From the IMG/VR virus record IMGVR_UViG_2718217647_000001: a stretch of DNA of 64,000 bases, one strand, 5' to 3'. Positions 18,326-62,661 of the stretch are shown piece after piece (position 1 is the stretch's first letter; every line of letters starts with the position of its first letter). The position numbers were made by a program, and so were the translations under genes. Source of the DNA: a virus. The notes beneath the pieces are model-generated. The model searched no databases and was not told where the DNA came from. It saw only the letters and a program-made list of their open reading frames with translations.

Positions 18326-19339
18326 ATGGAAGCACCTGCTATTTATAGAACGCCCGAGCTTATCGCGGCCGAAATTAATAATATCAAACGCCAAACCCGG
18401 ACCATGCTTCTATATAACAGCATCGAGATAGGCCGGCGTCTTTACGAGGCCAAGAATTATATCCCCCATGGTGAATGGGGCAAGTGGCTCCAGGAGTCTG
18501 TGGAATATTCCCAAAGCACGGCCAATAATCTAATGCGGATCTTTGAGGAATATGGCGCCGACCAACTTAGCCTTTTTGACAACAATGCAAAATCCCAAGC
18601 GCTTGGGATTTTGAGCTACACGCAAGCAGTCGCCCTCTTGGGGATCCCCCAGGAGGAGCGGGAACAGTTCATCGAGGATCATGATGTCGATAATATGTCC
18701 TCGCGGGAGCTGCAGGCGGCGATTAAGGAGCGGGATAAAGCACTGAAAGAAAAACAAAAGCTGGAGAAGACGGTTGCAAACATCGGAGATACCGTCACTC
18801 AAATCTCCAAGGAGAGGGACAAGCTTCGCGATGAAGCGTCCCAGCTTCGATCTGATATGCGAGTGACCAACGATGTGCTGAAAGAGAAGCAGGATACTGT
18901 TAAGACGCTTGGGGATGTATTGAAAGCAGAGAGGGAGCAATCCAAGGCTGAGATGGAGAAATTATCAAAACTTTTAGATGAGGCAAGAAAGAACGGATCC
19001 TCGGATGAGAAGGTAAAACAGCTCGAGGAAGAGCTTAAGGTAGCTCAGAGGCAGATTGATGTCCTGAACGATGAACTGAAAAAACCGGTTGAGCTGGAGC
19101 CGGCCGTTGTGGAAAAGATTCCGGAAGAGGTTGAGAAAGAGCTGGAGGAGCTCCGGAAGAAAGCGGCCCAACAGAACCCGGCTGCAATCAAGTTTAAAGT
19201 GATCTTTGACGGGCTAGTGAAGAACTTTCAGGAACTACTGGCTACACTGGCTGAAATCGGGAAAGCGGATCCGGAGGCCCATGAGAAGTACAAGAACGCG
19301 GTGGCAGTGCTGATCGGAAAGATGGGGGAGCGGCTATGA
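18326..19339 (+). CDS. DUF3102-domain protein with C-terminal coiled coil
   Basis: IAAEINNIK, IEIGRRLYEAK...PHGEWGKWLQESVEYSQSTANNLMRIFEEYG motif. Confidence 0.88.
   Translation: MEAPAIYRTPELIAAEINNIKRQTRTMLLYNSIEIGRRLYEAKNYIPHGEWGKWLQESVEYSQSTANNLMRIFEEYGADQLSLFDNNAKSQALGILSYTQAVALLGIPQEEREQFIEDHDVDNMSSRELQAAIKERDKALKEKQKLEKTVANIGDTVTQISKERDKLRDEASQLRSDMRVTNDVLKEKQDTVKTLGDVLKAEREQSKAEMEKLSKLLDEARKNGSSDEKVKQLEEELKVAQRQIDVLNDELKKPVELEPAVVEKIPEEVEKELEELRKKAAQQNPAAIKFKVIFDGLVKNFQELLATLAEIGKADPEAHEKYKNAVAVLIGKMGERL
18588..18613. repeat. 26-bp perfect palindrome, copy A (inside the DUF3102 CDS)
   Basis: CAAAATCCCAAGCGCTTGGGATTTTG. Confidence 0.97.
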
Positions 19340-19845
19340 GCAAAATCATCGTTTCAGTAAATCCTATTCTAGATTATTCTGTTCGCGAATTGTGCAAGAA
19401 GCCATATTACAGTCATCCAAACGGATGCCCGAATTTTAATAAAAAACAAGGTTGCCCTCCACAAGTTAAATATTTTGATCAGATATTTGATATAACAAAA
19501 CCTATTTATGCGATATGCAATGTATTTAGTTTTTTAGAACATGTAAAAAGAATGAGGCGCCTCCATCCTGAATGGTCAGATCACCAATTAAAATGTTGCC
19601 TATACTGGCAGGGCACGGCTAGAAAACAGCTTAGAAGCCATGTGGCGGAATTTACAAAAGAGCATAATGGACATTTTGTTACATATTGCCCTGAGGGCAT
19701 GGGAGTTAATGTGACCGAAACATTGAAAAACGTTGGGATTTTTCTTGAGTGGCCACCCGTATATGTGTCTTATCAAGTGGCTCTAGCTGGTATTATGGTT
19801 CAGAAAGGCGGCAAATGCGATGGCAAGAACGTCAAGACAGGCTGA
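19336..19845 (+). CDS. Cys-rich putative metal-binding protein (DUF2284-like)
   Basis: LCKK...GCPNF...GCPP, CCLYWQG, CPEGMGVNV. Confidence 0.55.
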   Translation: MSKIIVSVNPILDYSVRELCKKPYYSHPNGCPNFNKKQGCPPQVKYFDQIFDITKPIYAICNVFSFLEHVKRMRRLHPEWSDHQLKCCLYWQGTARKQLRSHVAEFTKEHNGHFVTYCPEGMGVNVTETLKNVGIFLEWPPVYVSYQVALAGIMVQKGGKCDGKNVKTG

Positions 19846-20389
19846 AGCGGCTGCACCTAAAAGGCAATATGCTCTTCCGGATGTCTATGAGAGAAAATTA
19901 CCCCGGGTAATGGGCAGATTGAAAGCGGCGGAGGACTTCGACTTCAACTGGGGGCGCTTTGATGCCTGGATTCAATTCCGGTATCAAGAGAACTTTTACC
20001 GGTTTGAGTATTCCATTCAAAAGAGTAAGGAACGGAATAAAGAAAACCCGATTGTCAAAGAACTCCATTATGGATCGGATTGTTTTGCGGTATTAGTGCT
20101 CCAACTAGAGGCCCTGGCCGGCATGGTGGAAAAAGGAATCTATGACCTGTCAGTTTGGGTGTCGGGTATGAAATACCTGCCGCCAGCAGTTGAGATCCCT
20201 AGTTTCTTTCGTGCTCTCGGGTTTGACCGGATCCCGGAGAGCTGCGAAAAAGTTAATATCCAGTACAAGCAGAAGGCCAAGATGTTGCACCCGGATGCCG
20301 GTGGAGATACGGCAGACTTTGAAATACTTACCCGGGCGAAAGAGCAATGTCTGCAATATTTGGGGAAAGGGGAGCGGAGTCATGGGTAA
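19820..20389 (+). CDS. J-domain-containing protein
   Basis: YKQKAKMLHPDAGG HPD motif near the C-terminus. Confidence 0.8.
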   Translation: MARTSRQAEAAAPKRQYALPDVYERKLPRVMGRLKAAEDFDFNWGRFDAWIQFRYQENFYRFEYSIQKSKERNKENPIVKELHYGSDCFAVLVLQLEALAGMVEKGIYDLSVWVSGMKYLPPAVEIPSFFRALGFDRIPESCEKVNIQYKQKAKMLHPDAGGDTADFEILTRAKEQCLQYLGKGERSHG

Positions 20390-20516
20390 ATGGATTGGAA
20401 TCGGCCTACTGATCGCCTATGCTTTGTTCTTTATGGTTACTACTTACTATTTTGCAGATCAGGCACTCCGGTATAAGAAGGAGAATGAGAGGCTAAAAAA
20501 ATTATGCAGCCGGTGA
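20382..20516 (+). CDS. Small membrane protein
   Basis: ATG 20382 behind GGAG; single TM helix. Confidence 0.55.
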   Translation: MGKWIGIGLLIAYALFFMVTTYYFADQALRYKKENERLKKLCSR

Positions 20517-21040
20517 GAGCGAAGCCTAAGAATCGGAAATATGCCAATAAGGGAGCCATTTTCGAGCGAGAAATAAGGATGTCCAATGCGGGTTATGAAA
20601 CCCGGGGCATCGCCCTGGTCCAGAAAATCAGCACTCCCTGGAATGTGGTCCGAGACGGTCCAAGGATCGTCTCGGCCTTCCCGGAGGAAAAGTCAACCCT
20701 GGATTTCAGGGGTACGGTCCGGGGCGGTACGTCAATTAGTTTTGATTGTAAGGAGTCGGAGGATGAACGAGGCCTCCCCTTGAAACACATCGAGCCTCAC
20801 CAAATAGACTACATCCGGAAAGCCCTCCAGGTCGGAGAGATCAGTTTCATTCTCTGCTACATGAAACTATTGGACAAGCGGTACTTCATCCCGGGAGCAA
20901 CGGTCCTAGAGCGCTGGGATGCTTGGCAACAGAATAAGGGGAAGCGGGGGTTCAATTACATCGATGTGGCGGATATGATTGAGGTCCGGTCCCGGAATGG
21001 AATAGTGTTGGATTATCTGGCTGGGCTGGAGGTTGGATGA
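20504..21040 (+). CDS. recU: RecU Holliday junction resolvase
   Basis: ANKGAIFE, QKISTP, STLDF, FDCKES motifs. Confidence 0.9.
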   Translation: MQPVRAKPKNRKYANKGAIFEREIRMSNAGYETRGIALVQKISTPWNVVRDGPRIVSAFPEEKSTLDFRGTVRGGTSISFDCKESEDERGLPLKHIEPHQIDYIRKALQVGEISFILCYMKLLDKRYFIPGATVLERWDAWQQNKGKRGFNYIDVADMIEVRSRNGIVLDYLAGLEVG

Positions 21041-21393
21041 TGAATAGAAAAGGCCAAGCAAATTATGAAACATTTCCTTATCTGACAGACGAAAATGGAA
21101 ACAACCTTTGCCGTACATGCAGAAAGCCTCTCAATTCAAAAAGGAAGACATTTTGCAATCAGCGATGTATACGAGATTTTTTTATGAAAACAGACTGGAA
21201 GAGAGTCCAAAAAGTGATTTATGCCCGCGATGGCGGGATATGCATGAAATGCGGGAAGGAAGTCAGTAAAGATAACTTCCATGTTGATCATATTGTTCCA
21301 GTCTCAAAAGGTGGAGATGAATGGGATTTAGAGAATTTGGAGCTTTCTTGCCCAGAATGTAATTTAAAGAAAGGTGCTAAGGAGGATTGTTAG
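21037..21393 (+). CDS. HNH endonuclease
   Basis: RDGGICMKC, HVDHIVPVSKGG, SCPECNLKK. Confidence 0.9.
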   Translation: MMNRKGQANYETFPYLTDENGNNLCRTCRKPLNSKRKTFCNQRCIRDFFMKTDWKRVQKVIYARDGGICMKCGKEVSKDNFHVDHIVPVSKGGDEWDLENLELSCPECNLKKGAKEDC

Positions 21394-21681
21394 GTGATGA
21401 TGAAGCAACTGCTTAAAGCTAAAGACGACATACGCTTGGATGATTTCCTGAAAATAAAACTCAGCTCACTGGTACGGGTGCCCGTTATTGTAATTTATAA
21501 GAACCAGAAAGATTATCCAGACAAATATGTGGCCAGACTCTGGGATATAAAAAATAAGCCCACTCACTACGCAGTGGTCAAGGACACTCTGGAAGAAGTG
21601 AGAGAGGCCATACCTTCTGGTATGTGCCGGATGGGGCCATCATCAAAAGATGATCCCGTGATTGTGGAAACCTGGGCATAA
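21394..21681 (+). CDS. Hypothetical protein
   Basis: DYPDKYVARLW...DDPVIVETW. Confidence 0.7.
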   Translation: MMMKQLLKAKDDIRLDDFLKIKLSSLVRVPVIVIYKNQKDYPDKYVARLWDIKNKPTHYAVVKDTLEEVREAIPSGMCRMGPSSKDDPVIVETWA

Positions 21682-21695
21682 GGGGGGAGTGTCAG

Positions 21696-21848
21696 ATGAC
21701 AAAAAAGATGCAATCGGTAATCATCTCTGAGCTGGACCGGCGGGGAATCAGATACGGGATCGATTCCACCGGCGCCCTTTTCTTCGAGGACGAGGATGAC
21801 CGGGAGAGAGGGATGAAGATTATTGCCGGCATTATGGGGAGGCGGTAA
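21696..21848 (+). CDS. Hypothetical microprotein (50 aa; not in ORF track)
   Basis: SD GGGGAG; fills the gap between flanking ORFs. Confidence 0.55.
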   Translation: MTKKMQSVIISELDRRGIRYGIDSTGALFFEDEDDRERGMKIIAGIMGRR

Positions 21849-21850
21849 CT

Positions 21851-22240
21851 GTGGAGAAGATAGTGGAGGCCCGGGGCGAATATGTTACGATCGGGGATCT
21901 AGCACTGCAGCTGGGGACAAGCCGGAAGAGGATCGGGCAAATAGTAAGGGCCAATAAAATTGAGATTGCCAAAAAAAGAGTTCAGGCACCAAAAGGGGAA
22001 TTCTACTATGCAAAAGCGGTTTCAGATACCTCTGTGATACAGATCCAGGAACTGCTTCAAAAATTTAATCCTCCGAAAGACAAAAGGCAAAAGAAAGGGA
22101 AAATAGAAGAGGTTCCCGCTGATGTCTCTTATGGAGAAGGAATAATTATCAGCCAGGATTTTAAAACTGGCCAAACCTGGGGGCAGGGGATCCGGGCTTG
22201 GTGGGAAAGAGAACGGGTGGAGAGGTTGATGATAGTCTAA
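21851..22240 (+). CDS. Hypothetical HTH-like protein
   Basis: VTIGDLALQLGTSRKRIGQIVR. Confidence 0.6.
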   Translation: MEKIVEARGEYVTIGDLALQLGTSRKRIGQIVRANKIEIAKKRVQAPKGEFYYAKAVSDTSVIQIQELLQKFNPPKDKRQKKGKIEEVPADVSYGEGIIISQDFKTGQTWGQGIRAWWERERVERLMIV

Positions 22241-22272
22241 AAGAGGATAACCAAGGGGAGGTGGGTCTCAAG

Positions 22273-22806: not shown

Positions 22807-22820
22807 CGGGTTTTCAGGTT

Positions 22821-23279: not shown

Positions 23280-23299
23280 CGTAAAAATTTAAACTATTT

Positions 23300-25143: not shown

Positions 25144-25523
25144 GTGGCACGTGAGCGAAATCCCAATAGAGAAAAGGCCAAAGAACTATGGACAGAACAC
25201 CACGGAAATATTACAAACCGTAAAATTGCCGAACTTCTCGGGGAAAATGAAAAGGTAGTGGCCGTCTGGAAGCAGCGGGACAAATGGAATGTTGTACAAC
25301 AAAAAAAAGAATGTTGTACAACAAAGAAACGCGGAGCCCCAAAAGGGAATAAAAATGCCAAGGATAACAAGGGCGGTGCTGCACCGGAGAAAAATAAGAA
25401 CGCTGAAAAGCATGGTTTCTTCTCTAAGATCTTTCCTGACGATCCGGAGACGATGGATATCATTAATTCCATTGAGTTTAAAAGCCCTATTGATATTCTC
25501 TGGGAGAACATAGTTATACAATA
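25144..25523 (+). pseudogene. terS: Terminase small subunit, truncated by IS3 copy 2
   Basis: HTH IAELLGENEKVVAVWKQRDKW; GAPKGNKNA and KNKNAEKHGFFSK motifs; frame runs into the IS end. Confidence 0.88.
25288..25325. repeat. Two 12-bp palindromes TGTTGTACAACA in direct repeat within terS
   Basis: AATGTTGTACAACAAA at 25288 and 25310 (22-bp period). Confidence 0.9.
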
Positions 25524-25829
25524 TATGGTGGACTACTTTGTCAAGACAATTTTTTGACCCTGTTTAAGGTGTATTCACACCACCTTTCGCTCCTTGATAA
25601 TTGTATATAATTGTAAGTTTATTTAAAAACGTATTGGTAATTCCGTTAATTATTTCCACTGGATTAGATATTATGTCAAGGGTCGGCTTTGCCGACAGCG
25701 AAGCTGCTTGCCCTTGACATGTTGATCAGCAAGACCCTTTTGTTTCCGGTCTGTTCATAACAGACCGGTTGCCTCCCGGCGAGGGCGGGGTGGTTTGGAG
25801 GGGCAGAGCCCTTCCAGGGTTTTAAGAAG

Positions 25830-26714
25830 TCATTTTTTAAAGTAAACTTCTGCCGGAGTAAGTTCCTTCAATGCTTGGTGTGGCCGGTATGTGTTGTAGC
25901 TTTCAAGATATCTTCCAATACCATACCTGGCTTCTCTAGGGCTTGCATAATCATTAATATATATTTCTTGGTACTTAACAGATCTCCATAATCGTTCTGT
26001 GAAAATGTTATCTAATGCCCGGCCTCTTCCGTCCATGCTAATTTGGATGCTACTATTTATCAGCGTATCTATATATCGTCTGGATGTAAATTGGCTACCC
26101 TGATCGCTATTGGCAATTACAGGTTTTCCGATTTTTAGACCTGCTTCCAATGCGGAAAGAACAAAATCAACTTCAAGGTTATCACTTAATTCCCATGAAA
26201 CCACGTAACGTGAATACCAGTCCAGAAATGCTACAAGGTAAAGCCAGCCGCGTCGTAAGCGGACATAGGTAATATCAGTTCCCCAAATATGGTTTGGATA
26301 ACTGGCGGTAATATTTCTAAGTAGGTATGGATAAACCTTATGTTCATGGTTTCTTTTGCTGAGGTTAGGACCAGGATGTATTGCAACCAAGCCCATTTCA
26401 CGCATATATTTTTGAACCGTTGACCGACTAACCAAGTGTCCCTCTCGTTTTAAGACCGTCGTAATACTTCTCGAACCGAAATAGGGTGATTTAGTATAAA
26501 TTTCGTCAATGGCATGCTTAAGCCGAATTTCCTCTTCTGATGGTGGAACTGGTTTATAGTAAAGACTGCTCCGATTGAGAGAAAGCATTTGAGCTTGCAC
26601 AAAAACGGACATTTCGGGATCGTCAAAATCTACAAGGGCAATCCGTTCACTTCTTGGCAGGGTCGATCCCAGATTTTTTTTTAAGCCAATTGAATTGGGC
26701 GGTGACCTCTCCAA
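25830..26714 (-). CDS. IS3 transposase OrfB
   Basis: Identical protein to 349-1233. Confidence 0.95.
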   Translation of the reverse strand: MERSPPNSIGLKKNLGSTLPRSERIALVDFDDPEMSVFVQAQMLSLNRSSLYYKPVPPSEEEIRLKHAIDEIYTKSPYFGSRSITTVLKREGHLVSRSTVQKYMREMGLVAIHPGPNLSKRNHEHKVYPYLLRNITASYPNHIWGTDITYVRLRRGWLYLVAFLDWYSRYVVSWELSDNLEVDFVLSALEAGLKIGKPVIANSDQGSQFTSRRYIDTLINSSIQISMDGRGRALDNIFTERLWRSVKYQEIYINDYASPREARYGIGRYLESYNTYRPHQALKELTPAEVYFKK

Positions 26715-26943
26715 GCTGGGTATACAGATCTTGCACTTGCTTTTTTAGATCTTCTTTTTCGTCATCCTTCCTGCGTCCATCTGCAAGTATCTGAGGGAGC
26801 CCTTCAATTGCTTCTTTCTTCCAACTAGACAGCTGATTTGGATGTACTTCATATTCGGCAGCAAGCTGGGATATGGATTTTTCTTCCTTTAGAATTTCCA
26901 GTACAACCTTGGCTTTAAATTCTCCTGTAAATGTTTTTCGCAT
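26647..26943 (-). CDS. IS3 transposase OrfA
   Basis: Identical protein to 120-416. Confidence 0.95.
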   Translation of the reverse strand: MRKTFTGEFKAKVVLEILKEEKSISQLAAEYEVHPNQLSSWKKEAIEGLPQILADGRRKDDEKEDLKKQVQDLYTQLGEVTAQFNWLKKKSGIDPAKK

Positions 26944-27002
26944 ACCTCATTATACACTTTAAATCAGGCTGTTTTGTTGTCTAGTTTTCTTAGTCCATTA
27001 TA

Positions 27003-28184
27003 AAGCAGCAGCTCTATGATGTCCTTTGGGCGGAAATATCTAAATGGTTAAGTTCTTCAAAAATAAAGAACTTGCTTAAGTGGACCAAAACCCGGGTGTA
27101 TATGGTTGGACATGAAGATCGATGGTTCGCTACGGCCAGGACAGCCACCCGACCTGAAAACATGCAGGGCTTCCATGAAGATTACATGCTTCTTATCGTG
27201 GATGAAGCATCAGGGGTTGCGGATCCAATCCTGGAGCCCATACTCGGTACCTTGACCGGTTATGAAAACAAGCTCTTAATGTGCGGAAACCCTACGAAGA
27301 TCAGCGGGGTTTTTTATGATTCACACAATAAGGACCGGGACCTCTATAAGACCCATAAAGTATCTAGTTTAGACAGCAAACGGACCAGCAAGGAAAACAT
27401 TGAGATGCTGATCCGGAAATATGGGAGAGATAGTGATGTAGTCCGGGTCCGTGTTTATGGCGAGTTTCCAAAAACTGAACCGGATACCTTGATTGCCCTT
27501 GAAGTTGTGGAGCTGGCGGCCAAGACCAGCAAAGTTAATCCGACGGGCAGTATTCTTCACCTGGGTGTGGACGTTGCCCGGTTTGGAGACGATGAGACGG
27601 TCATTGCCCCTCGTATAGGGGGGAAGGTCTTCCCCCTGCACGGTTACAATAAGCAGGATACGATGAAAACAGCCGGATGGGTGCTCAATATTGCCCGGTC
27701 TTTTCGAGAGCAAAGACCGGATATCTGGATGGTGGTAATCAAAGTTGACGATACCGGTGTTGGTGGAGGGGTAACCGATAGGCTGAATGAAGTAATTCTG
27801 GAAGATGGATTACCGTATATAGTTGTTCCTGTTAACAATGGCGGTAAGTCCGATGATGAAGAAGGTCACTTTGAGAACAAAGGAACTGAATCCTGGGTTG
27901 TAGTCAAAGAAATCCTGCAGCAGAACTTCTCAAACTTTGTGCAGGGTCAAGAAGCTCTGGTTGAACTGCCCAATGATGAAAAACTTATCAGCCAGCTGAC
28001 CACAAGAAAATATCGGATGACCAGCAAAGGCCGGATTGCACTGGAGCGAAAAGAAGACATGAAGAAGCGGGGGCTGCCGTCCCCGGACCGGGCAGATGCG
28101 GTGGTATTATCGTTTATCGAAAGTGTAGTTGTCCCCCTAGACGAAATTAATAACGATTCGGCTTATGACAATGAAATTGAGTAG
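27003..28184 (+). pseudogene. terL: Terminase large subunit lacking its N-terminus (no Walker A)
   Basis: Frame open from the IS edge (KQQLYDVLWAEISKW...); Walker B LLIVDEASG, CGNPT, nuclease GVDVARFGDD and SPDRAD. Confidence 0.9.
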
Positions 28185-29672
28185 GTGAGAAATGTGAACC
28201 CATTAAAGCCTTTAGCCCAGAAAGTATTGAAAGATGACTTAAGTGTTATGCAGGAGAGTATTTCGAAGCTCTCTGAAGCCGTTTCCTCCCTTCAGATTGA
28301 AGAAAGAGGATGGATCAACGTATCTCAGGGCTTTGTCCCCTGGGAGATCACGGGGGAACAACGGCAGCATGTTATTGAGAAGGTCCGAGATGCTTTTAAG
28401 AAAAATCCTCTTGCCGGCCAGATAGCAGATATCAAGAAATACTTTACGATGGGGCAAGGCATTGGGTTTAAAGCTGAGGATCCGGATGTCAATGAGGTGC
28501 TTAAAAGTTTTTGGAATGATGAATCCAACAAATGGTTCCTGAGGCAAAGCCAGCTCTCCGATGACTTAGAGGTCGATGGAGAGTTTTTTATTAGGTTTTT
28601 CAAAAACGATATAACCGGCCGGGTCCAAGTCCGCTGTATTCCCGCCTGGCAGATTACTGACGTTGTAACTGACCAGGAAGATGCAGAGACTCCACTGTGG
28701 TACCGGCGGGAATGGGTGGAGCAAAAGTGGGATCCCCAAGCAAAATTATATGCTATCGTCAAATACCATATCGGTGTTGAAGCGGACTATATTCCTGCAG
28801 ATGAGATCCTTCATGTTAAGGTTGGAGCTCCTTTGTACGCGAAGTTCGGGAATTCCCCTTTATACCGGACGCTGGGGTATTTGAACGCATACAAAGAATG
28901 GCTGGAAGATAGGGCCAAGCTCAATAAGGCCCGGGCTGCCTTCGCCTGGAAAAAGAAGATCAAGAATATGGGTAACAGTGTCGCTACGGCTGTCAACGGA
29001 GTTTTAAATACATTGAATAAAGCCTTTAATGGGAACGAAAAGCCGGTTCCGCCGAAAACCGGGGGTGTGATTGTCGAGAATGACGGTGTGGAGTGGACTG
29101 TCGTTAACTCCGACGTAAAGGCAGACAATGCCAGTGAAGACGGCCGTGCCATTAAACTAATGATCTGTGCCGGCTCCGGAATCTTCGAACATTACCTGGG
29201 TGATGCCAAGGTGGGGAACCTGGCCAGTACCAAAAGTATGGAGCTACCTATGATGAAGATGTTTGAATGGCGCCAGAAGCTATTTGAGATGGCAGTTTTC
29301 CTTCCGATATTCCGACGGGTAATTCGTGCCGCCGTTGAAGCGGGAGCACTCCCTGAAAAGAGCAAGGTGACCCGGCAGGAAGGTGGAAAACAAATTGAAC
29401 TGGAGATCGAAACAGACCAGGTGTACATCGATATCGATTTCCCACCGCTGGTTTTGAAAGAAATCAAAGAGCTTACCGACGCCTTGGTGAAGCAGGTCCA
29501 GGAAAGGCTTAAATCCAGGCAGACAGCGGGCATGGAATTAGGTATAGAGGATTGGGAACAGGAAGTTGCTATGATCCTAGCTGAGGAGGAGGAGCTGAGA
29601 AAACGGCAGCGAGAGGATGATACAAATTCCTATCCCCCCTTTAACCCTCCCAAGGGGGATGAGGAAGAATGA
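28185..29672 (+). CDS. Portal protein
   Basis: Position after terL; size; NPLAGQIAD, DGEFFIRF, ILHVKV motifs. Confidence 0.8.
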   Translation: MRNVNPLKPLAQKVLKDDLSVMQESISKLSEAVSSLQIEERGWINVSQGFVPWEITGEQRQHVIEKVRDAFKKNPLAGQIADIKKYFTMGQGIGFKAEDPDVNEVLKSFWNDESNKWFLRQSQLSDDLEVDGEFFIRFFKNDITGRVQVRCIPAWQITDVVTDQEDAETPLWYRREWVEQKWDPQAKLYAIVKYHIGVEADYIPADEILHVKVGAPLYAKFGNSPLYRTLGYLNAYKEWLEDRAKLNKARAAFAWKKKIKNMGNSVATAVNGVLNTLNKAFNGNEKPVPPKTGGVIVENDGVEWTVVNSDVKADNASEDGRAIKLMICAGSGIFEHYLGDAKVGNLASTKSMELPMMKMFEWRQKLFEMAVFLPIFRRVIRAAVEAGALPEKSKVTRQEGGKQIELEIETDQVYIDIDFPPLVLKEIKELTDALVKQVQERLKSRQTAGMELGIEDWEQEVAMILAEEEELRKRQREDDTNSYPPFNPPKGDEEE

Positions 29673-36495: not shown

Positions 36496-37269
36496 ATGTC
36501 CTTTGAAAAGAAACGGAATGCAAATTTGCTGGTGCTTTCCACCCCGGCAGTTTTTGCCGGAACCTTTACCGATTCGGCCGGCGTGACGGCTGCCATGGCA
36601 AATAATGCAATCCCTGGGGCTACTGACTTCGGATATGACCATGACCTTGGAGTCACGCTTCAGGGGAAAGGGCAATTCGGGTTAAACAAGCCTGTTGGTC
36701 TCACCGACGAATATGGCGGAATTAAAGGAAACTTTGACATTCAGGGGACAGATGGGGAGGCTGCGGTACTTGCCGCGGTTAGCCGTATTGCCCGGTCCGC
36801 ATTCGTCAACGCAAACTACAATAAGTTATATGAATGTTTTCTAATTGCGAATATATTAGAGGATGACGGCGCTGCCCTACGGGCCCATTTCTGCGAGACA
36901 TGCCGGATCGATGCTGTTCCCAAAAAGGTGGGCCCTGATGCAAAGCGTTTCTCTTTCCAAGGTGTTATCGGCCGTGACTTCGTAAATAAGAAGATCAGGG
37001 TAGCCGTGATAAACGGAGCTGCATCGCCGGTGACTGCCGTGAACTATCCTACAGGAGAAACTGCAGCTGCATGGATCGATGATAACGGGACCAGCAGGTA
37101 TGCTTTGTTGGTTCTAAAGTACAAGGACTCTGACAAGACTGTCAAACGGCTAGAACTGGCATCAGCGGCCGCGGCGGGCTATTATTCCGAAACCGGTAGC
37201 GCAATTACCTTGCACACCGCGGATGGGTTAGCCACAAATGACAAAGCATTGATAGTGTATCTGGCATAA
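36496..37269 (+). CDS. Major tail protein (inferred)
   Basis: Position before chaperone and TMP; small-residue-rich; followed by a terminator. Confidence 0.65.
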   Translation: MSFEKKRNANLLVLSTPAVFAGTFTDSAGVTAAMANNAIPGATDFGYDHDLGVTLQGKGQFGLNKPVGLTDEYGGIKGNFDIQGTDGEAAVLAAVSRIARSAFVNANYNKLYECFLIANILEDDGAALRAHFCETCRIDAVPKKVGPDAKRFSFQGVIGRDFVNKKIRVAVINGAASPVTAVNYPTGETAAAWIDDNGTSRYALLVLKYKDSDKTVKRLELASAAAAGYYSETGSAITLHTADGLATNDKALIVYLA

Positions 37270-37294
37270 AGGCGGGTTATTTAACCCGCCTTTT
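37268..37294 (+). terminator. Intrinsic terminator
   Basis: AAAGGCGGGTTA-TT-TAACCCGCCTTT. Confidence 0.8.
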
Positions 37295-37301
37295 CCTTTA
37301 C

Positions 37302-37327
37302 CAAATTCCCAAGCGCTTGGGAATTTG
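37302..37327. repeat. 26-bp perfect palindrome, copy B (intergenic)
   Basis: CAAATTCCCAAGCGCTTGGGAATTTG. Confidence 0.97.
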
Positions 37328-37351
37328 AATTTATGAAAGGTGGTATTTGTT

Positions 37352-38083
37352 ATGGCCGAATTAACAAATGAAATGATTCAAAAAAGATTTGAGACGGTAT
37401 CTTCTGGCACCTATTCTCCGGAGATCCCGGGCCTGCCGGGCATCACTTTTATAAAGCTGGGACTGAAAGAGCGTGGGCAATCCTCCCGGGCCTATAGCGC
37501 CCGACTGAAGGAACTTATGGCTGCCGGCGGATATTTCTCTGAGGCTCTATTGCCTACAGTCCTGGAAAAGGCCTGCAGGGAGAATGGAATGGATCTTTCC
37601 GTAATCGGGAAGCAGCGGGCTATCCAAAAGAGATTCTATGACAGCATCCCCCCGGAGCTAATGGATCCTTACGACAAACTGACCGAAGAAGAAGTGGCCT
37701 TGCTTCCGGAAGAAGTGAAAGCGGAAAGGCAGGAGGCCATCGAGGAGCGCGGCCGGCAGATCATGGAGTTTATGCAGAACTTTTACAGCGTAGCAGATAA
37801 AAAGGTGTTCGAACAGTGTCGGCAGATTGAGGCGCTGGAACAACATCTTAAGGCTAACACGGCAGAGCATCACGCCCGGAAACACCAGATGGAGACGGAG
37901 ATCCTCCTATGCGCCAGGCGGTCGGATGATATTAATATCCCTTACTTTTCGAGCATTGAGGACATTCAGGAGCTGGAGGACCGGAATAGAACAGGGCTTG
38001 TACAGTTGTACTTGAAATGGAAGCAGTTCCGAGAAGGGCTAACGCCAGAATTTTTTCGTCCCAATAGTGCTGCTCTGCAATGA
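37352..38083 (+). CDS. Tail assembly chaperone (gpG-like)
   Basis: Position after the major tail gene; acidic helical protein; ends at GAA TTT TTT CGT slippery site. Confidence 0.7.
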   Translation: MAELTNEMIQKRFETVSSGTYSPEIPGLPGITFIKLGLKERGQSSRAYSARLKELMAAGGYFSEALLPTVLEKACRENGMDLSVIGKQRAIQKRFYDSIPPELMDPYDKLTEEEVALLPEEVKAERQEAIEERGRQIMEFMQNFYSVADKKVFEQCRQIEALEQHLKANTAEHHARKHQMETEILLCARRSDDINIPYFSSIEDIQELEDRNRTGLVQLYLKWKQFREGLTPEFFRPNSAALQ

Positions 38084-54657: not shown

Positions 54658-54963
54658 TATGGTGGACTACTTTGTCAAGACAATTTTTTGACCCTGTTTA
54701 AGGTGTATTCACACCACCTTTCGCTCCTTGATAATTGTATATAATTGTAAGTTTATTTAAAAACGTATTGGTAATTCCGTTAATTATTTCCACTGGATTA
54801 GATATTATGTCAAGGGTCGGCTTTGCCGACAGCGAAGCTGCTTGCCCTTGACATGTTGATCAGCAAGACCCTTTTGTTTCCGGTCTGTTCATAACAGACC
54901 GGTTGCCTCCCGGCGAGGGCGGGGTGGTTTGGAGGGGCAGAGCCCTTCCAGGGTTTTAAGAAG

Positions 54964-55848
54964 TCATTTTTTAAAGTAAACTTCTGCCGGAGTAAGTTCC
55001 TTCAATGCTTGGTGTGGCCGGTATGTGTTGTAGCTTTCAAGATATCTTCCAATACCATACCTGGCTTCTCTAGGGCTTGCATAATCATTAATATATATTT
55101 CTTGGTACTTAACAGATCTCCATAATCGTTCTGTGAAAATGTTATCTAATGCCCGGCCTCTTCCGTCCATGCTAATTTGGATGCTACTATTTATCAGCGT
55201 ATCTATATATCGTCTGGATGTAAATTGGCTACCCTGATCGCTATTGGCAATTACAGGTTTTCCGATTTTTAGACCTGCTTCCAATGCGGAAAGAACAAAA
55301 TCAACTTCAAGGTTATCACTTAATTCCCATGAAACCACGTAACGTGAATACCAGTCCAGAAATGCTACAAGGTAAAGCCAGCCGCGTCGTAAGCGGACAT
55401 AGGTAATATCAGTTCCCCAAATATGGTTTGGATAACTGGCGGTAATATTTCTAAGTAGGTATGGATAAACCTTATGTTCATGGTTTCTTTTGCTGAGGTT
55501 AGGACCAGGATGTATTGCAACCAAGCCCATTTCACGCATATATTTTTGAACCGTTGACCGACTAACCAAGTGTCCCTCTCGTTTTAAGACCGTCGTAATA
55601 CTTCTCGAACCGAAATAGGGTGATTTAGTATAAATTTCGTCAATGGCATGCTTAAGCCGAATTTCCTCTTCTGATGGTGGAACTGGTTTATAGTAAAGAC
55701 TGCTCCGATTGAGAGAAAGCATTTGAGCTTGCACAAAAACGGACATTTCGGGATCGTCAAAATCTACAAGGGCAATCCGTTCACTTCTTGGCAGGGTCGA
55801 TCCCAGATTTTTTTTTAAGCCAATTGAATTGGGCGGTGACCTCTCCAA
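54964..55848 (-). CDS. IS3 transposase OrfB
   Basis: Identical protein. Confidence 0.95.
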   Translation of the reverse strand: MERSPPNSIGLKKNLGSTLPRSERIALVDFDDPEMSVFVQAQMLSLNRSSLYYKPVPPSEEEIRLKHAIDEIYTKSPYFGSRSITTVLKREGHLVSRSTVQKYMREMGLVAIHPGPNLSKRNHEHKVYPYLLRNITASYPNHIWGTDITYVRLRRGWLYLVAFLDWYSRYVVSWELSDNLEVDFVLSALEAGLKIGKPVIANSDQGSQFTSRRYIDTLINSSIQISMDGRGRALDNIFTERLWRSVKYQEIYINDYASPREARYGIGRYLESYNTYRPHQALKELTPAEVYFKK

Positions 55849-56077
55849 GCTGGGTATACAGATCTTGCACTTGCTTTTTTAGATCTTCTTTTTCGTCATC
55901 CTTCCTGCGTCCATCTGCAAGTATCTGAGGGAGCCCTTCAATTGCTTCTTTCTTCCAACTAGACAGCTGATTTGGATGTACTTCATATTCGGCAGCAAGC
56001 TGGGATATGGATTTTTCTTCCTTTAGAATTTCCAGTACAACCTTGGCTTTAAATTCTCCTGTAAATGTTTTTCGCAT
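55781..56077 (-). CDS. IS3 transposase OrfA
   Basis: Identical protein. Confidence 0.95.
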   Translation of the reverse strand: MRKTFTGEFKAKVVLEILKEEKSISQLAAEYEVHPNQLSSWKKEAIEGLPQILADGRRKDDEKEDLKKQVQDLYTQLGEVTAQFNWLKKKSGIDPAKK

Positions 56078-56131
56078 ACCTCATTATACACTTTAAATCA
56101 GGCTGTTTTGTTGTCTAGTTTTCTTAGTCCA

Positions 56132-57394
56132 TTATAGCTGATCCGGAGTTTTCATCTCATATGGTTTGTTATCCCGGAGCATGGCAAATATCGTGTTGCA
56201 CACCTTATGCATAACTGCACCAAGTGCAACCATCTTACATTTAGATTGACACTTTTTCAGGTAAAATTCACGCAGGACAGGGTTCTTAGCAACTCCTTTC
56301 TTATCACTGCCGATTGCCTGAAGTGCCATCGTGTAAACTACTCTGCGAGCCAGAGCAGATCCCCGCTTGGAAATCTTGACATCGGTGCCCTTAAAGTTAC
56401 CGGACTGCTTTACCTCCGGGTCTAATCCAAAGTAAGCATAAAGCTGTTTTGGTTTACGGAAAGCGCCGAAATCACCGATTTCGCACATAAGAGTTACCGC
56501 GCTTAGGAAACCGGCACCTCGATAGGATTCCAGCAAATGAATCTGCTGGATAAAGGGTTCTTCCGGATGGGCATCCACAATGGAGGCCATCTCAGAAAGA
56601 ACAGCCTGAGTCTCCTCATCATATTTCTGAATGAAAGAGATATGTTGGCAGATCAGAAAAAAGTTGCTGTCCAGAGCATGGCCGAAAGAAAAAGATTCTT
56701 TAGCTGCCAGTACCAGTTGCTCATATTTTGCAGCGGCGGAGGCAATCCCTTTCCTGGAGGCTTTTGCAATGGCAGGAATCAAGGTGCTGGGGTCGGCATC
56801 AAGGATAGCCTGAGGGGAGGTATATTCCTTTAAAATCATAAGAGAAGCACTTCCCGTCACTTTGGAGAAGATACCGAGGTATTGCGGAAAAGCAACCCGG
56901 AGCTGGCCTAAAAGCTTGTTCACATAAGCAGAACGGGCATCCATGAGATTGTAATATTCCCTAGTAAGATTGCGCAGGTTTAAAACCAGGTCTGTCGGTA
57001 TGAGAGATAACTTGATGTTTGGATTCAAACCGAGGATGGCAGCCTTTTTGGAATCGAAGCTATCATTATGAACTTTCCTGATGTTCATGTTTCTGCTAGA
57101 ATTGGTGATGAGGGGATTGATGACGGAAACGTCAAATCCCGACTCACGGAGATAGCAGAAGAGAGGGAAATGGTAGATTCCCGTGGATTCCAGAAAGATA
57201 CGAGCTTTCAAGGAATTCAACTCTTCTGCTTTTTTAATTCTGTCAACGGCAGAAGAGAGAGAATCCAACCGATTATGAAAAATCTTAAAGGGCTTACCAA
57301 GAAGTTGGAAATTGGGGAGTGCTATGGACATTTCAGAGAAATCGGCACCCACATCAATCCCAACAGATAAATAAGGTTCAAAAGTTTGGTGCAT
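56132..57394 (-). CDS. IS110-family recombinase/transposase, C-terminally clipped by IS3
   Basis: DEDD RuvC motifs VGIDVG / FLESTG / NDSFDS; Tnp domain YFGLDPEVKQSG; ATG 57394 behind AAGGAG. Confidence 0.92.
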   Translation of the reverse strand: MHQTFEPYLSVGIDVGADFSEMSIALPNFQLLGKPFKIFHNRLDSLSSAVDRIKKAEELNSLKARIFLESTGIYHFPLFCYLRESGFDVSVINPLITNSSRNMNIRKVHNDSFDSKKAAILGLNPNIKLSLIPTDLVLNLRNLTREYYNLMDARSAYVNKLLGQLRVAFPQYLGIFSKVTGSASLMILKEYTSPQAILDADPSTLIPAIAKASRKGIASAAAKYEQLVLAAKESFSFGHALDSNFFLICQHISFIQKYDEETQAVLSEMASIVDAHPEEPFIQQIHLLESYRGAGFLSAVTLMCEIGDFGAFRKPKQLYAYFGLDPEVKQSGNFKGTDVKISKRGSALARRVVYTMALQAIGSDKKGVAKNPVLREFYLKKCQSKCKMVALGAVMHKVCNTIFAMLRDNKPYEMKTPDQL

Positions 57395-57399
57395 GAGTA

Positions 57400-57736: not shown

Positions 57737-57777
57737 AGCTTTAATGCTATATCAATATGATACTAGGAGGGGTAAAA

Positions 57778-58223: not shown

Positions 58224-58266
58224 GCCTAAAAGGCTCATTAATTTTGTTACCGAGGAGGGGGTTATA

Positions 58267-58794
58267 TTGGGCATCATAGAAATGTTTGCAGGCACTATCA
58301 GTAAAGTAGGGGAGAACCACTGGGCGCAGTTTTGGGGTGTGTTGCTAGGGATCTTTTTTTATCTGGTGGAGCCGGGAGCAGCTTTTGGGGCATTATGGAT
58401 TGCCGTGGCTGGCGATTTATTCAGCAGACTGATAGCCGAGGCAAGGACCCATGGTGGACTGTATCATGCAGCCAAAGAAGGATTTATTAATTCCGAAAAA
58501 ATGTTTTGGCAAACGGCGGTAAAGATTACCGCATATTTTTTTATGTGCGTGATGGCCAATCAGAGCAAATACATATTCAGGTATGACGCACCGTCGGAGC
58601 TGTTCTCAACTATTGTTTATTCAATTCTTTTTTTGGTGGAGTTTTTCTCGGTCTCTAAGAATTTTCAAGACGCAGGCGTCAATTCTTTTAAATGGTTGGC
58701 CATGTTCGCAAAGCAAAGATTAGATAAAATTGTACCTGGTGGAGGTGATATTTGTGAGGGAGATAAACCTTCTTCATCCGGACCTACAGACTAA
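58267..58794 (+). CDS. Holin (phage holin family 4-like)
   Basis: TM helices; INSEKM...AVK, LVEFFSVSKNF motifs. Confidence 0.75.
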   Translation: MGIIEMFAGTISKVGENHWAQFWGVLLGIFFYLVEPGAAFGALWIAVAGDLFSRLIAEARTHGGLYHAAKEGFINSEKMFWQTAVKITAYFFMCVMANQSKYIFRYDAPSELFSTIVYSILFLVEFFSVSKNFQDAGVNSFKWLAMFAKQRLDKIVPGGGDICEGDKPSSSGPTD

Positions 58795-59347
58795 ATGTAA
58801 TAGGTTGATCGACCTGGCAAAAAGTAAGGGGCATAACATCATTATCACGCAAACACTCCGGAGCAAGCAGGAGCAAGATGATATGTATGCCCAGGGCCGG
58901 ACAAAGCCTGGAAAAATTGTTACCGAGGTTAAATATCCCCGGTCGATGCATTGCTGGGGATTGGCGTTCGACATTGCTGTCTTGCTAAACGGTCTGGTTA
59001 CCTGGGATACAAAGTTTTATGATCAGATCGGGCCATTGGCTGCGGCCATCGGCCTGGAGTGGGGCGGATCCTGGAAGAGCTTTGTAGACAAGCCTCACTA
59101 CCAGCTTCCCGGGTACGATGTTGATGATCTGATCAAGAAGTATGGTGCACCGGAGAAATTTATGAAATCGTGGGAGGGGATTAATGTGCCGGGATTTGAG
59201 GGGCCAGCCAAAGTAATTTTTAAAGGGAAGGAGCTTTCAGCAGGACTGCTGGAAGGGAGAACTTACGTGGAGATTCGGGCCCTGGCTGAGGCCATGGGCC
59301 TGAAGATTTCCTACGACAATGCCACCAAGACTGTAACCCTGTCATAG
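58754..59347 (+). CDS. Endolysin: M15-family peptidase plus copper-amine-oxidase-N-like binding domain
   Basis: TLRSKQEQDDMYAQGRT, SMHCWGLAFDI, WGGSW..FVDKPHYQ; C-terminal GRTYVEIRALAEAMG. Confidence 0.9.
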   Translation: MREINLLHPDLQTKCNRLIDLAKSKGHNIIITQTLRSKQEQDDMYAQGRTKPGKIVTEVKYPRSMHCWGLAFDIAVLLNGLVTWDTKFYDQIGPLAAAIGLEWGGSWKSFVDKPHYQLPGYDVDDLIKKYGAPEKFMKSWEGINVPGFEGPAKVIFKGKELSAGLLEGRTYVEIRALAEAMGLKISYDNATKTVTLS

Positions 59348-59386
59348 GGTTTTATTTTTTTACCAAAATTTAAATGGAGGGGATCT

Positions 59387-59773
59387 TTGATGAGTACAAT
59401 GTTCTATGATGTGTTTCAGGTTTTGATCTGCCTTTTGGCGGTTCTGCTGGCCGGCGGTCTGGTCTGGTTTATCAAAGAAAAAATCGGCGTCGAGAAAATG
59501 AAGAAAATATCCAGTGAGCTTTATGCCAATAAGGAGCTGGCTGCTGCAGCCGTCCGATATGCCCAACAAGTTTTTTGGAACCAGGCCGGCGAGATTCGGT
59601 ATCAGAAAGCTGCAGAGTGGATGTCTACACAGTGCAAGAAGGTTGGCTTAAATATTGCTGATAGTGAAATCAAAACATTAATTGAAAGTGCCCTCCGAGC
59701 CTTCAAAGACGAATTCGGTGAGGAGTGGGGAAAAGCCATTGCCGAGCCGGCCGGCGCGGAAGGAACTGAATAA
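59387..59773 (+). CDS. LL-H-family holin
   Basis: N-terminal TM helix; AVRYAQQ, RYQKA, IESA motifs. Confidence 0.8.
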   Translation: MMSTMFYDVFQVLICLLAVLLAGGLVWFIKEKIGVEKMKKISSELYANKELAAAAVRYAQQVFWNQAGEIRYQKAAEWMSTQCKKVGLNIADSEIKTLIESALRAFKDEFGEEWGKAIAEPAGAEGTE

Positions 59774-59818
59774 GGGGGTGATCCCTATCTGCCGGCCCAC
59801 TACGACCCCAGCATACGA

Positions 59819-59855
59819 GCCCTGTCTCTTCGGAGGCAGGGCCTTTTTATTTTTT
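59819..59855 (+). terminator. Late-operon terminator
   Basis: GCCCTGTCTC-TTCG-GAGGCAGGGC followed by T-tract. Confidence 0.85.
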
Positions 59856-59862
59856 CCGCCAC

Positions 59863-59927
59863 TTGACAAAACAGAGAAAAAACTGTAAAATCATTTACAA
59901 GATAATCGTCAATGATTTTACAGTTTT
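59863..59927 (+). promoter_or_regulatory. sigmaA promoter overlapped by a 17-bp inverted-repeat operator
   Basis: TTGACA(59863)-17-TAAAAT(59886); AAAACTGTAAAATCATT (59879-95) and AATGATTTTACAGTTTT (59911-27). Confidence 0.85.
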
Positions 59928-59962
59928 GGTGTTATTTTGTCAATCTTAAGGAGGATAGTTAA

Positions 59963-60568
59963 ATGGATCCAAAGCTTTTTATTGAGAATTGCTTTCCTAA
60001 AAAAGTACAAATGGAATTTTTAAGCTGTGTTCGGGATGGCTATAAGTTAGCCGATAGCATGTATGAATTATTGCCTGTTAAAGCTAAATATTTCGATGAG
60101 TTTAGAGTCAGAGCAATTAATTATACTGTTGAGGCGACTCTTATTTATGCAGTCAAACAAAACAAAATACCGTTTAATTGGATAGAAGAAAGAAACTCTG
60201 CTAACAACTGCTCACATCTTAAACTACATAGGGATGATGTTATTTTGACCGTAAGTCAAGTTGAAAGAAGGCGTTTAATGCCTAGGGAGGCTGTGTTCCG
60301 TACTTATCACAGTCAAGGAAACCAAATGTCCCTTTTTGAAGAGTTGTTAGGAGAGATTCCTTATGTTATTTTAACACATGGATATAAATCTAAAGAACCA
60401 AAGTTTGCGATGCTTGGGATGCCAGAACCACCATCTGCAATGGGTTGGGCCGGTGAACCTATTGACATAACAGATTCAATAGTTGTTGGGAGTATCGAAG
60501 AAAGAATTCCAGAAAAAGATGCTTTTAAAATGAAGAATGAGGTCCTTGAAAGGTTGAGTCGAGAATGA
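59963..60568 (+). CDS. Hypothetical protein coupled to the XRE-peptidase gene
   Basis: SD AAGGAGG; ATGA overlap with the next gene. Confidence 0.8.
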   Translation: MDPKLFIENCFPKKVQMEFLSCVRDGYKLADSMYELLPVKAKYFDEFRVRAINYTVEATLIYAVKQNKIPFNWIEERNSANNCSHLKLHRDDVILTVSQVERRRLMPREAVFRTYHSQGNQMSLFEELLGEIPYVILTHGYKSKEPKFAMLGMPEPPSAMGWAGEPIDITDSIVVGSIEERIPEKDAFKMKNEVLERLSRE

Positions 60569-61719
60569 GAAACAGTAATATGATATATGATGTTAATCCT
60601 TTGCCAGAAAGAATTAAAGAAGCTAGGATGGCTAAGGGTTATACTATGTCTCAGTTAGCTGAAAAACTGAGTATTTCTCGCCAAGCGATTTCCCAGTACG
60701 AGCTAGGTGTTAATACCCCCAAGGATGAAGTTTTTAGTAAAATGGTTGATTTTTTGGGGTTTCCAGTTAATTATTTTTACAAGCCAATTGAATATCGGTT
60801 AAATAATCCAGTTTTTTTTAGAAGCTTTAAAACAGCTGAAAAACGGGTTCGTGATATTTCGAGGGTACGAATTGGATGGATGATTGAAATACTTTTATAT
60901 TTAAAAAGATATATAGAATTTGAACAAGTTACTGAAGGTTTAATAAGATCAGCACCATCAAAAGATGATTATTACGATGACGAAATTGAAGAAATAGCTC
61001 TAAAAGTTAGAAAAAGTTTTGGACTAGGTTTAGGACCAATTAGTGATGTTGCCTTGCTGTTAGAAAATCATGGTTTTATTGTTTCCAAAATGGCATTAAA
61101 TGAACAAAAAGTAGATGCTTGTTCAGTACTTAATACTTTTGAAGATAGAAGGCCGCTTATTTTTTTGACTGAGGATAAAACTGCTGTTCATTCTAGGTTT
61201 GATGTAGCGCATGAACTAGGACATGTTGTTTTACATTCTTGGGTAGATGAGGAATATTTAGAAGATCCTCAGAATCTGAAAAGAATTGAAAAAGAAGCAT
61301 TTAGATTTGCATCAGCATTTTTAATGCCAGAGGAAACCTTCTCAAGAGAAATTTATTCAACTTCGCTTGAATCTTTTTTACCATTAAAAAAGCGATGGAA
61401 AGTATCAATTCAAGCGATGATTCGTAGATGTTATGACCTTGAGCTATTTAATCAGAATCAATATGAATATTTACAACGACAGATTTCTTCTAGGAGGGCC
61501 AGAATAAATGAGCCATTAGATGATGAGATCTGTCATGAGCAACCTAAGACTCTGAAAAAGGCAATGCAGATGTTAATTGATCATAAGGTTCAGACTCCAG
61601 TAGAAATTGTAGAAAATTTACGTCTTCCAGTTGATCAAATTGAAATGCTTTGTGGATTAGAAAAAGGGATATTGCGTGATAAAAAGGAACCTTACTTGAG
61701 AATTGTTAAGAACAATTAA
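60565..61719 (+). CDS. XRE HTH + ImmA/IrrE (DUF955) Zn-peptidase fusion
   Basis: YTMSQLAEKLSISRQAISQYELG HTH; RFDVAHELGH; EKEAFRFASAFLMP. Confidence 0.92.
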   Translation: MRNSNMIYDVNPLPERIKEARMAKGYTMSQLAEKLSISRQAISQYELGVNTPKDEVFSKMVDFLGFPVNYFYKPIEYRLNNPVFFRSFKTAEKRVRDISRVRIGWMIEILLYLKRYIEFEQVTEGLIRSAPSKDDYYDDEIEEIALKVRKSFGLGLGPISDVALLLENHGFIVSKMALNEQKVDACSVLNTFEDRRPLIFLTEDKTAVHSRFDVAHELGHVVLHSWVDEEYLEDPQNLKRIEKEAFRFASAFLMPEETFSREIYSTSLESFLPLKKRWKVSIQAMIRRCYDLELFNQNQYEYLQRQISSRRARINEPLDDEICHEQPKTLKKAMQMLIDHKVQTPVEIVENLRLPVDQIEMLCGLEKGILRDKKEPYLRIVKNN

Positions 61720-61764
61720 TATCTTTAAACTTTACTTACTGTAGTGGCTTTATGGGGGTGAAGA

Positions 61765-62418
61765 ATGCAATATTTTGAAATAAAAGCAGACCTTCAGTTT
61801 ATGAAGGATTTTTTAAAAAATGTATATGATTTGTGGCAAATTGAATCAGAGGTTGCAAAGAAGATCGGACGAGGCCACTGGGTGTTGCATAATGAATATA
61901 AAAAAATTGTACGAAATCAGGCGGCTAGCGTTGGAGGTTACCAACATATTCGATCATTAGTTGCAACTGGTTCTCTAAGAGCCATAAAAATTGCAGATGC
62001 TTTCGGAATACCTATTCATGCAAATTCGTTCCCGGCACCGGCAGTTGGTGGACCAGTTATACCTCTTAATCTTTTTTCCGCAATTCTAAATGACACTTCC
62101 TATAATGGGATTGACAAACAGGTGATTATTGATGCAATTAATCAAACAATTGAGGCTTGCGAAATAAGGGTAAAACAAGAACTCTGGAATCTAATAAACC
62201 CTTTATATTGGGTTAAAACAATTTTTATATTTATTATACGAATACCGTTTTTGCTTATCAAATTTTCGGGTTTCAACGTAGATAAAATTGAAGAACACAT
62301 CTTTTCAAAATTATTTAAGGTAATAGAGTTGGGAGTGTTAATAATTATACTCCTAAAATATGGTTTTAATCTTGATGAAATTGTAAAACAGGTTATGCTC
62401 CCAATTTTTACAAAGTGA
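61765..62418 (+). CDS. Hypothetical protein with C-terminal TM helices
   Basis: ORF track; hydrophobic C-terminus. Confidence 0.75.
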   Translation: MQYFEIKADLQFMKDFLKNVYDLWQIESEVAKKIGRGHWVLHNEYKKIVRNQAASVGGYQHIRSLVATGSLRAIKIADAFGIPIHANSFPAPAVGGPVIPLNLFSAILNDTSYNGIDKQVIIDAINQTIEACEIRVKQELWNLINPLYWVKTIFIFIIRIPFLLIKFSGFNVDKIEEHIFSKLFKVIELGVLIIILLKYGFNLDEIVKQVMLPIFTK

Positions 62419-62635
62419 GATTCTTAGCAAGTCAAAGCGCGTTCGATATGATAACAGTACCACCATCAAGGAGGTACTGCTTATTTTATCTGCCGATCCT
62501 AACCAAGCCCGCCATCTTGATTATTTTTTGAAATAAGACTGTCCGAAAGGCACTTATATTATAAGTGGGCAGAGGACAAATTTTCACTTGAAAAATCATC
62601 AAAAAATACATGAATACTTGATAAACCATTCCCTT

Positions 62636-62661
62636 CAAATTCCCAAGCGCTTGGGAATTTG
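62636..62661. repeat. 26-bp perfect palindrome, copy C (identical to copy B)
   Basis: CAAATTCCCAAGCGCTTGGGAATTTG. Confidence 0.97.

Follow-up and report, generated by a model that had tools for sequence, protein, structure and literature searches.

The 64,000-nucleotide (nt) stretch of DNA analysed here, IMG/VR virus record IMGVR_UViG_2718217647_000001 (the window), contains a siphovirus-type prophage in which a 26-bp palindrome is found both between genes and within the codons of a gene encoding a DUF3102 protein. That codon segment is palindromic far beyond the needs of the peptide it encodes, and so is under selection as DNA. The palindrome is probably the cognate double-stranded DNA site of DUF3102, and we consider it likely that the protein acts as a dimer, binds DNA in a site-specific manner and has its putative site within its own gene. 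The observations that bear on this are the sites and their element specificity, the selection at the DNA level, the covariation of sites with one another and with the protein, and a fold resemblance; DNA binding and a downstream function of DUF3102 are what they suggest, and a dimer is proposed solely because the site is symmetric.

Perfect 26-bp palindromes are present at 18588-18613 (copy A; CAAAATCCCAAGCGCTTGGGATTTTG) and at 37302-37327 and 62636-62661 (copies B and C; both CAAATTCCCAAGCGCTTGGGAATTTG), none being assigned to a strand, and their sequences read as claimed in the original prediction, an earlier note made from the sequence of this DNA. The 16-bp core has a chance expectation of 0.01 occurrences per window. 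Copy A, as that note also held, lies within the DUF3102 gene (18326..19339, + strand, 337 amino acids); it provides the codons for residues 88-96 (AKSQALGIL). Relative to copies B and C, each of its arms has an A/T exchange at position 9 from the centre, a symmetric change that keeps the palindrome perfect, as the note had likewise remarked. Copies B and C were described as intergenic and not terminators, and both points hold. Copy B is located between a 257-amino-acid gene (36496-37269), which probably encodes the major tail protein, and a gene at 37340-38083 that the earlier note had called a tail chaperone; copy C is in the accessory region beyond the lysis genes, upstream of a gene for a Sll1717-family P-loop ATPase. 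The palindromes have no T-run, and copy B directly follows a distinct terminator-like hairpin, read from the sequence, that does have one (37271..37299, + strand), so that a terminator function is ruled out. A whole-genome search revealed a fourth copy (D; CAAATTACCAAGCGCTTGGGAATTTG), with 1 mismatch, at genome position C1:1026790, equivalent to window position 64743 and so 743 bases past the window end. With up to 6 mismatches allowed in the 26-mer, no copy besides these four was found in the 6.44-Mb genome. The four copies span 46 kb, all within this single prophage, and with none outside it the motif is not a host repeat.

Copies C and D have a leader in common, identified by alignment, that is ~180 nt in all and contains a small hairpin and a tiny upstream open reading frame (ORF). 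For copy C this leader occupies 62662..62815 on the + strand; that of copy D is outside the window. The tiny ORFs encode MWKYILQNLCC and MWKYAVNH (see also L005:760-900) and are followed by unrelated accessory genes. This segment may represent a regulatory leader that is repeated, or else the junction of a cassette.

From genomes and viral contigs 176 DUF3102 loci were collected, whose alignment yielded 153 different DNA segments at the codons of copy A. At least 11 of the 13 pairs are complementary in 76 of these 153 segments, a level reached by only one of 128,949 windows elsewhere in the same genes. The mean best pair score is 9.7, versus 6.6 in synonymous-codon shuffles that preserve the peptide, and 61% of the homologues are individually at p ≤0.01 in this shuffle test. 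All four Watson-Crick pair types occur at position 2 from the centre (49, 10, 9 and 6 sequences), and position 6 is G-C in 45 sequences and C-G in 34. Perfect palindromes with other cores, for example TCGTCAGC, TCGTCACC, TCGGAATC and CTCCAAGC, are present at the equivalent codons, and the peptide alters accordingly. The check that the original prediction had named beforehand, that the segment should stay palindromic in homologues while its sequence and peptide vary, therefore came out in its favour. In the window gene itself, perfection of copy A requires Ile (ATT) at residue 95, which is Asn in 132 of 177 homologues and Ile in this one alone. The pairs that are not Watson-Crick comprise 32 of G.U type, 28 of A.C type and 98 of other kinds, and an asymmetric variant with a mid-stem C.C mismatch (TCGCAAGCGCTTGCCA) is retained in every copy of several phages. 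The lack of a G.U preference and the conserved C.C mismatch both speak for recognition of the sequence on duplex DNA rather than for an RNA stem or a cruciform. A restriction or methylation site was also considered and rejected, as the central hexamer differs between variants (AGCGCT, ACCGGT, ATCGAT, ACTAGT) and so offers no constant enzyme site.

Related phages also have additional copies of their sites, as the original prediction had anticipated. A second copy of the locus's own variant (≤3 mismatches in 22) is present within 10 kb at 19 of 113 loci, versus none in 565 cross-searches with foreign variants, and ten whole viral records have 1-4 copies each, always of the variant found in their own gene. 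Most of the extra copies are intergenic and located at module boundaries: after a Holliday-junction resolvase gene, beside a late regulator or small terminase gene, or before or after lysis genes. Phages of a short-loop subfamily have no good palindrome in the gene, yet the exact palindrome is present elsewhere on the contig. In the cultured Paenibacillus phage Tripp (L190, NC_028930.1), a distant DUF3102 homologue, with 32% identity, has a perfect 16-bp palindrome, TTAGCGACGTCGCTAA, at the equivalent codons (29640-29655), the sole copy in its 54-kb genome. In Desulfosporosinus prophages (L057:1686, L062:3672, L064:9069, L069), the extra copies of the TCGGAATC variant precede ~90 nt of conserved sequence, in which the hairpin GCGGCCCTTGGGCCGC is located. 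The strand orientation of asymmetric copies seemed conserved in TCGC-type phages, was flipped in G208, and no conclusion was drawn from it. One 2.9-Mb genome from the same phylum (G167; loci L012, L019 and L022-L029) has ten DUF3102 genes with at least four variants of the in-gene palindrome, and Desulfosporosinus nitroreducens P130 also has several DUF3102 copies, which suggests that specificity diversifies among co-resident prophages.

The site also covaries with the protein. The predicted recognition helix comprises residues 63-80 (codons 18512..18565, + strand), and residue 64, at its start, is Ser in 47 sequences with C at half-site base 6, and Arg or Lys in 44 sequences with G. The exceptions are one Arg/C sequence and ten Ser/G sequences, the latter from a class with a further site difference at base 5. 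With the residues that the site itself encodes set aside, no position shares as much mutual information with base 6 as residue 64, not even those whose codons are nearer to the site. When independent pairs were taken from a tree built without residues 58-100, ~7 changed in the same direction, none in the opposite direction and ~1 showed no difference (p 0.016). At copies located 2-37 kb from the gene, the bases are G/G in six of six cases in Arg64 phages, and in Ser64 phages are C/C in eight, G/G in one and mixed in three. Both phages with Lys63 have T at base 7, replacement of Asn68 by Lys or Arg tracks changes at bases 4-5, and replacement of Thr99 by Ser tracks a G to A change at base 2. 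Residues 64 and 68 are one helical turn apart, and Ser64 (codon 18515-18517) and Asn68 of the window protein are candidate specificity residues.

The protein belongs to the DUF3102 family (Pfam PF11300, E 1.5e-57, 193.8 bits relative to a cut-off of 24.4, residues 8-136). Its AlphaFold2 model, a confident one with a pLDDT (predicted local distance difference test) of 87.7 for the whole protein and 82.6 for residues 1-135, has a helix-turn-helix head at ~27-135, in which one long helix precedes the helix-turn-helix, an antiparallel coiled coil at 126-252 and a C-terminal helical bundle. A fold search with the whole protein was swamped by the coiled coil, and the N-domain was therefore refolded alone. 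With this N-domain, a search of 48,161 chains that was independent of Foldseek returned seven ParB-superfamily DNA-binding domains in the top 21, with Z of 3.9-5.7, namely ParB-parS (6s6h, Z 5.7), Spo0J (1vz0, Z 5.5), KorB (8qa8 and 1r71, Z 5.5), SopB (Z 4.3), P1 ParB (Z 4.2) and VirB (Z 3.9). Foldseek similarly matched the N-domain to ParB and Noc (probability up to 0.99, E ~0.3) and, when run against the AlphaFold DB Swiss-Prot models, to chlamydial pGP6-D, NovE, YhcG, ParB and Noc (probability up to 1.0). A Pfam scan of the protein gave DUF3102 alone, with no ParB/Srx (CTPase) domain (PF02195) and, at E up to 0.001, no match to KfrA_N (PF11740).

DUF3102 is the last gene of an adjacent, co-directional trio (15994-19339), all on the + strand, in which it is preceded by a PcfK-like gene (15994..16362, 122 amino acids), whose look-alikes in a protein atlas carry PF14058, and by a PcfJ-like gene (16375..18309, 644 amino acids; Pfam PF14284, E 5e-32) that is its conserved upstream neighbour. 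Among 160 related loci, homologues of the trio are present in matching relative positions, PcfK-like at 129, PcfJ-like at 127 and DUF3102 at 157, while the surrounding phage genes vary. DUF3102 has >450 matches in each of two collections. A sequence search of solved structures returned only coiled-coil noise for DUF3102 and nothing for PcfJ or PcfK, and a scan of ~70 ORFs, which was not exhaustive, detected no ParA-like partner. In the literature, DUF3102 received passing mentions only, with no published function found, and nothing useful was found on the function of PcfJ or PcfK.

If DUF3102 is the reader of the palindrome, then a dimer would place the ParB-type helix-turn-helix of each subunit on one half-site (AAWT-TCCC-AAGC), with recognition-helix residues 64 and 68 and residue 99 of the next helix reading the variable inner bases. 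Given a site within the codons for the DNA-binding domain, specificity and site would be inherited as a unit in mosaic phage genomes, with as many as four more copies placed between genes where modules meet. Bound DUF3102 could then organise, bridge or tether phage DNA, or recruit PcfK-like and PcfJ-like partners, roles suggested by its long coiled coil and by the co-conservation of these two partners. The dispersal of the copies, the absence of promoter overlap and the several specificities in G167, together with the coiled coil, would fit a role in organising, tethering or recruiting that is more like that of KfrA, KorB, RacA or ParB than that of a simple repressor. The original prediction had proposed that DUF3102 binds the site, for autoregulation, for organisation or segregation of phage DNA, or for marking of self DNA. 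Its binding component gains support from the covariation among sites, the ParB/Noc/KorB-like predicted fold and the pairing of residue 64 with base 6, all read from sequences and models. Genome organisation or segregation, regulation (autoregulation included), marking of self DNA and recruitment of PcfJ/PcfK-like proteins are all candidate outcomes of the putative binding.

There are also results that weigh against DUF3102 as the reader. In G202, G207 and phage Tripp, the only copy is that in the gene. The exact 20-mer is present in 45 viral contigs, 22 of which encode DUF3102, an enormous enrichment, but 23 do not, and the palindrome is therefore not exclusive to DUF3102 phages. A sensitive hidden Markov model search detected no DUF3102 in four proviruses that carry the 20-mer and are 96-100% complete. 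The fold scores are modest (Z <8, Foldseek E 0.08-1) and the profile-profile similarity to ParB, evaluated with hhalign, is weak (probability 6.9%, P 0.005); for these reasons the N-domain is described as having a predicted ParB-like fold, and the protein is not placed in the ParB family. The residue 64 codon is 73 nt from the in-gene site, so linkage accounts for part of the in-gene correlation, and the phages are related, so that samples are not independent and kinship inflates all of the counts. No promoter-like site overlaps copy B or copy C, which argues against a plain operator role, and an operator overlapping a promoter was rejected accordingly. The four complete proviruses without DUF3102 are G215, G213, G216 and G221 (L262-L275), and their sites are located at lysis or late-operon boundaries. 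Some DUF3102-negative proviruses are in host genomes that also hold a DUF3102-positive provirus, and the sites in DUF3102-negative contigs may be read from another prophage, may be read by another protein or may be passengers of module exchange.

Such contigs, and in particular the complete proviruses and those that share a host genome with a DUF3102-positive one, are an argument for a different reader, in which case a PcfJ-like, PcfK-like or other phage protein, or a factor from a co-resident prophage, would recognise the palindrome and DUF3102 would merely host one copy. The PcfK and PcfJ genes are, moreover, linked to the site as tightly as DUF3102. We nevertheless regard this as unlikely, as the site falls in the codons of a predicted ParB-like DNA-binding domain and the recognition-helix residue tracks the site base at unlinked copies as well, and with the window's PcfJ and PcfK as queries no homologues were detectable in the four complete DUF3102-negative proviruses either. 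The palindrome could instead form an RNA hairpin in transcripts, acting in processing, stability or attenuation or as a protein-binding stem, with the extra copies marking intercistronic processing points. Consistent with this, the extra copies occupy short gaps separating genes of the same orientation, often with a ribosome-binding site 10-25 nt downstream, and compensatory changes in the two arms fit a stem equally well. This is, however, quite improbable given that G.U-type mismatches are not favoured over A.C-type, that the C.C mismatch is kept in mid-stem, that the sequence itself, beyond its pairing, is conserved across distant hosts, and that a Rfam search of the window for known RNA families returned nothing.

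The original prediction had offered a further alternative, that the palindromes extrude as hairpins processed by SbcCD. In its wider form, extruded hairpins or cruciforms would be substrates for SbcCD-like or RecU/RusA nucleases and would seed recombination and module exchange at boundaries. The prophage does encode SbcCD-like proteins (9066-12778) and RecU (20504-21040), and sites in its relatives adjoin Holliday-junction resolvase genes and module boundaries. But SbcCD-like genes are present at none of the 160 related loci and RecU at only 14, asymmetric variants are retained from copy to copy, a length of 26 bp is short for extrusion, and the covariation with residue 64 is left unexplained. 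Processing by SbcCD thus found no support, and extrusion in any form appears highly improbable.

With DUF3102 preferred as the reader, its closest parallels are the ParB-parS, Noc-NBS and KorB-OB systems, which have a similar predicted fold in the DNA-binding domain and in which the sites are palindromes of the 14-16-bp class read by dimers. As with the OB sites of KorB and the NBS of Noc, there are one to several dispersed sites per replicon. Here the palindromic sites on the same replicon comprise one in-gene and three more copies and are element-specific, and homologues have matching sites. There is also a parS site inside the B. subtilis spo0J gene, and the outer half-site ATTCCC recalls the NBS half-site, ATTTCCC. 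That the core has the same length as parS, to which the original prediction drew attention, carries no weight. Unlike the ParB family, DUF3102 has no ParB/Srx CTPase domain, so that no sliding clamp driven by cytidine triphosphate is expected, its C-terminus is a long coiled coil, and there is no ParA partner among the ORFs scanned. The DUF3102 site is 22-26 bp, with 8 extra central base pairs, and the sequence similarity is at noise level.

KfrA-type proteins (IncP-1, IncU) are described (PMC7821693, PMC7783346) as having an N-terminal, globular head that binds DNA, followed by a long tail of alpha-helical coiled coil, as binding an inverted repeat linked to their own gene, autoregulating, and interacting with the partition proteins IncC and KorB. 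The AlphaFold2 model of DUF3102 similarly has a DNA-binding-like head (~27-135) and a coiled coil (126-252), but there is no KfrA_N match, the site is in coding sequence rather than in a promoter, further copies are present across the element and the partners are PcfJ/PcfK-like. Binding sites inside the gene of the binder, in a linker-coding segment, are also known for lambda O and ori and for SPP1 G38P with oriL and oriR, and SPP1 has a second site far off in the late region. In those systems the sites form an iteron array with an AT-rich region, whereas DUF3102 has one palindrome; here a DnaD-like replication organiser is also encoded separately (13946-14719), and the dispersed copies number up to five. 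Among Swiss-Prot models in AlphaFold DB, the entire N-domain, its long first helix included, is best matched by chlamydial pGP6-D and LmbU/NovE (TM score by query 0.54-0.66, probability 1.0), but there is no sequence similarity to these proteins, E is only 0.08-0.4 and their mechanisms are poorly defined.

The remainder of the prophage is organised as follows. Lysogeny genes, encoding an ImmA-like peptidase and a helix-turn-helix repressor, are at 4123-5341, and the early region contains, in addition to the SbcCD-like, DnaD-like and RecU genes, HNH genes. The late region begins with the small terminase subunit at 25144, continues through portal, head, tail and lysis genes to 59347, and is followed by the accessory region. 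A tRNA-Pro gene is located 1.2 kb to the left of the window and, on the right, host rimP and nusA begin at ~68.2 kb in window terms. An IS3-type element of at least 1,440 bp is present three times, with 100% identity between the copies, at 61-1500, 25563-27002 (reverse) and 54697-56136 (reverse). One of these separates the small terminase gene from a C-terminal large-terminase fragment (27072-28184), and the prophage is therefore probably defective. Directly downstream of copy C, the Sll1717-family P-loop ATPase gene (62816-64000, continuing to ~64380; NCBIfam E 8e-73, with a weak match to an anti-phage family) is a candidate prophage-borne defence gene. The host genome has a single ParB_N match (C1:3970467), consistent with one ParB and apparently no Noc paralogue.

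Together with the neighbouring PcfJ/PcfK-like genes, DUF3102 constitutes a module found in hundreds of temperate Bacillota phages. Tentatively, and with slightly less than even confidence, we propose that DUF3102 is a widespread, CTPase-less branch of ParB-fold DNA binders in these phages, with the site in the codons of its own DNA-binding domain. The reading residues (Ser/Arg64, Asn/Lys/Arg68 and Thr/Ser99) and the site would co-evolve as a portable specificity cassette, and the protein, together with PcfJ/PcfK, would mark, organise or tether phage DNA at module boundaries. If this is correct, selection at the DNA level even forces changes in amino acids, as for Asn95Ile here, and the several specificities per host genome, with four or more among the ten G167 copies, would reflect an incompatibility-like pressure against cross-talk between co-resident prophages. 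The analysis gives DUF3102 a concrete proposed role that can be falsified: the 26-bp site is defined, residues that may set specificity are named, and a Ser64Arg switch of specificity is predicted. Cultured Paenibacillus larvae phages such as Tripp, whose distant homologue has an in-gene palindrome of its own, provide an experimental system. In the DUF3102 gene, selection on the DNA as a putative binding site has clearly shaped a segment that also encodes protein, which bears on how protein-site pairs remain linked in mosaic genomes.

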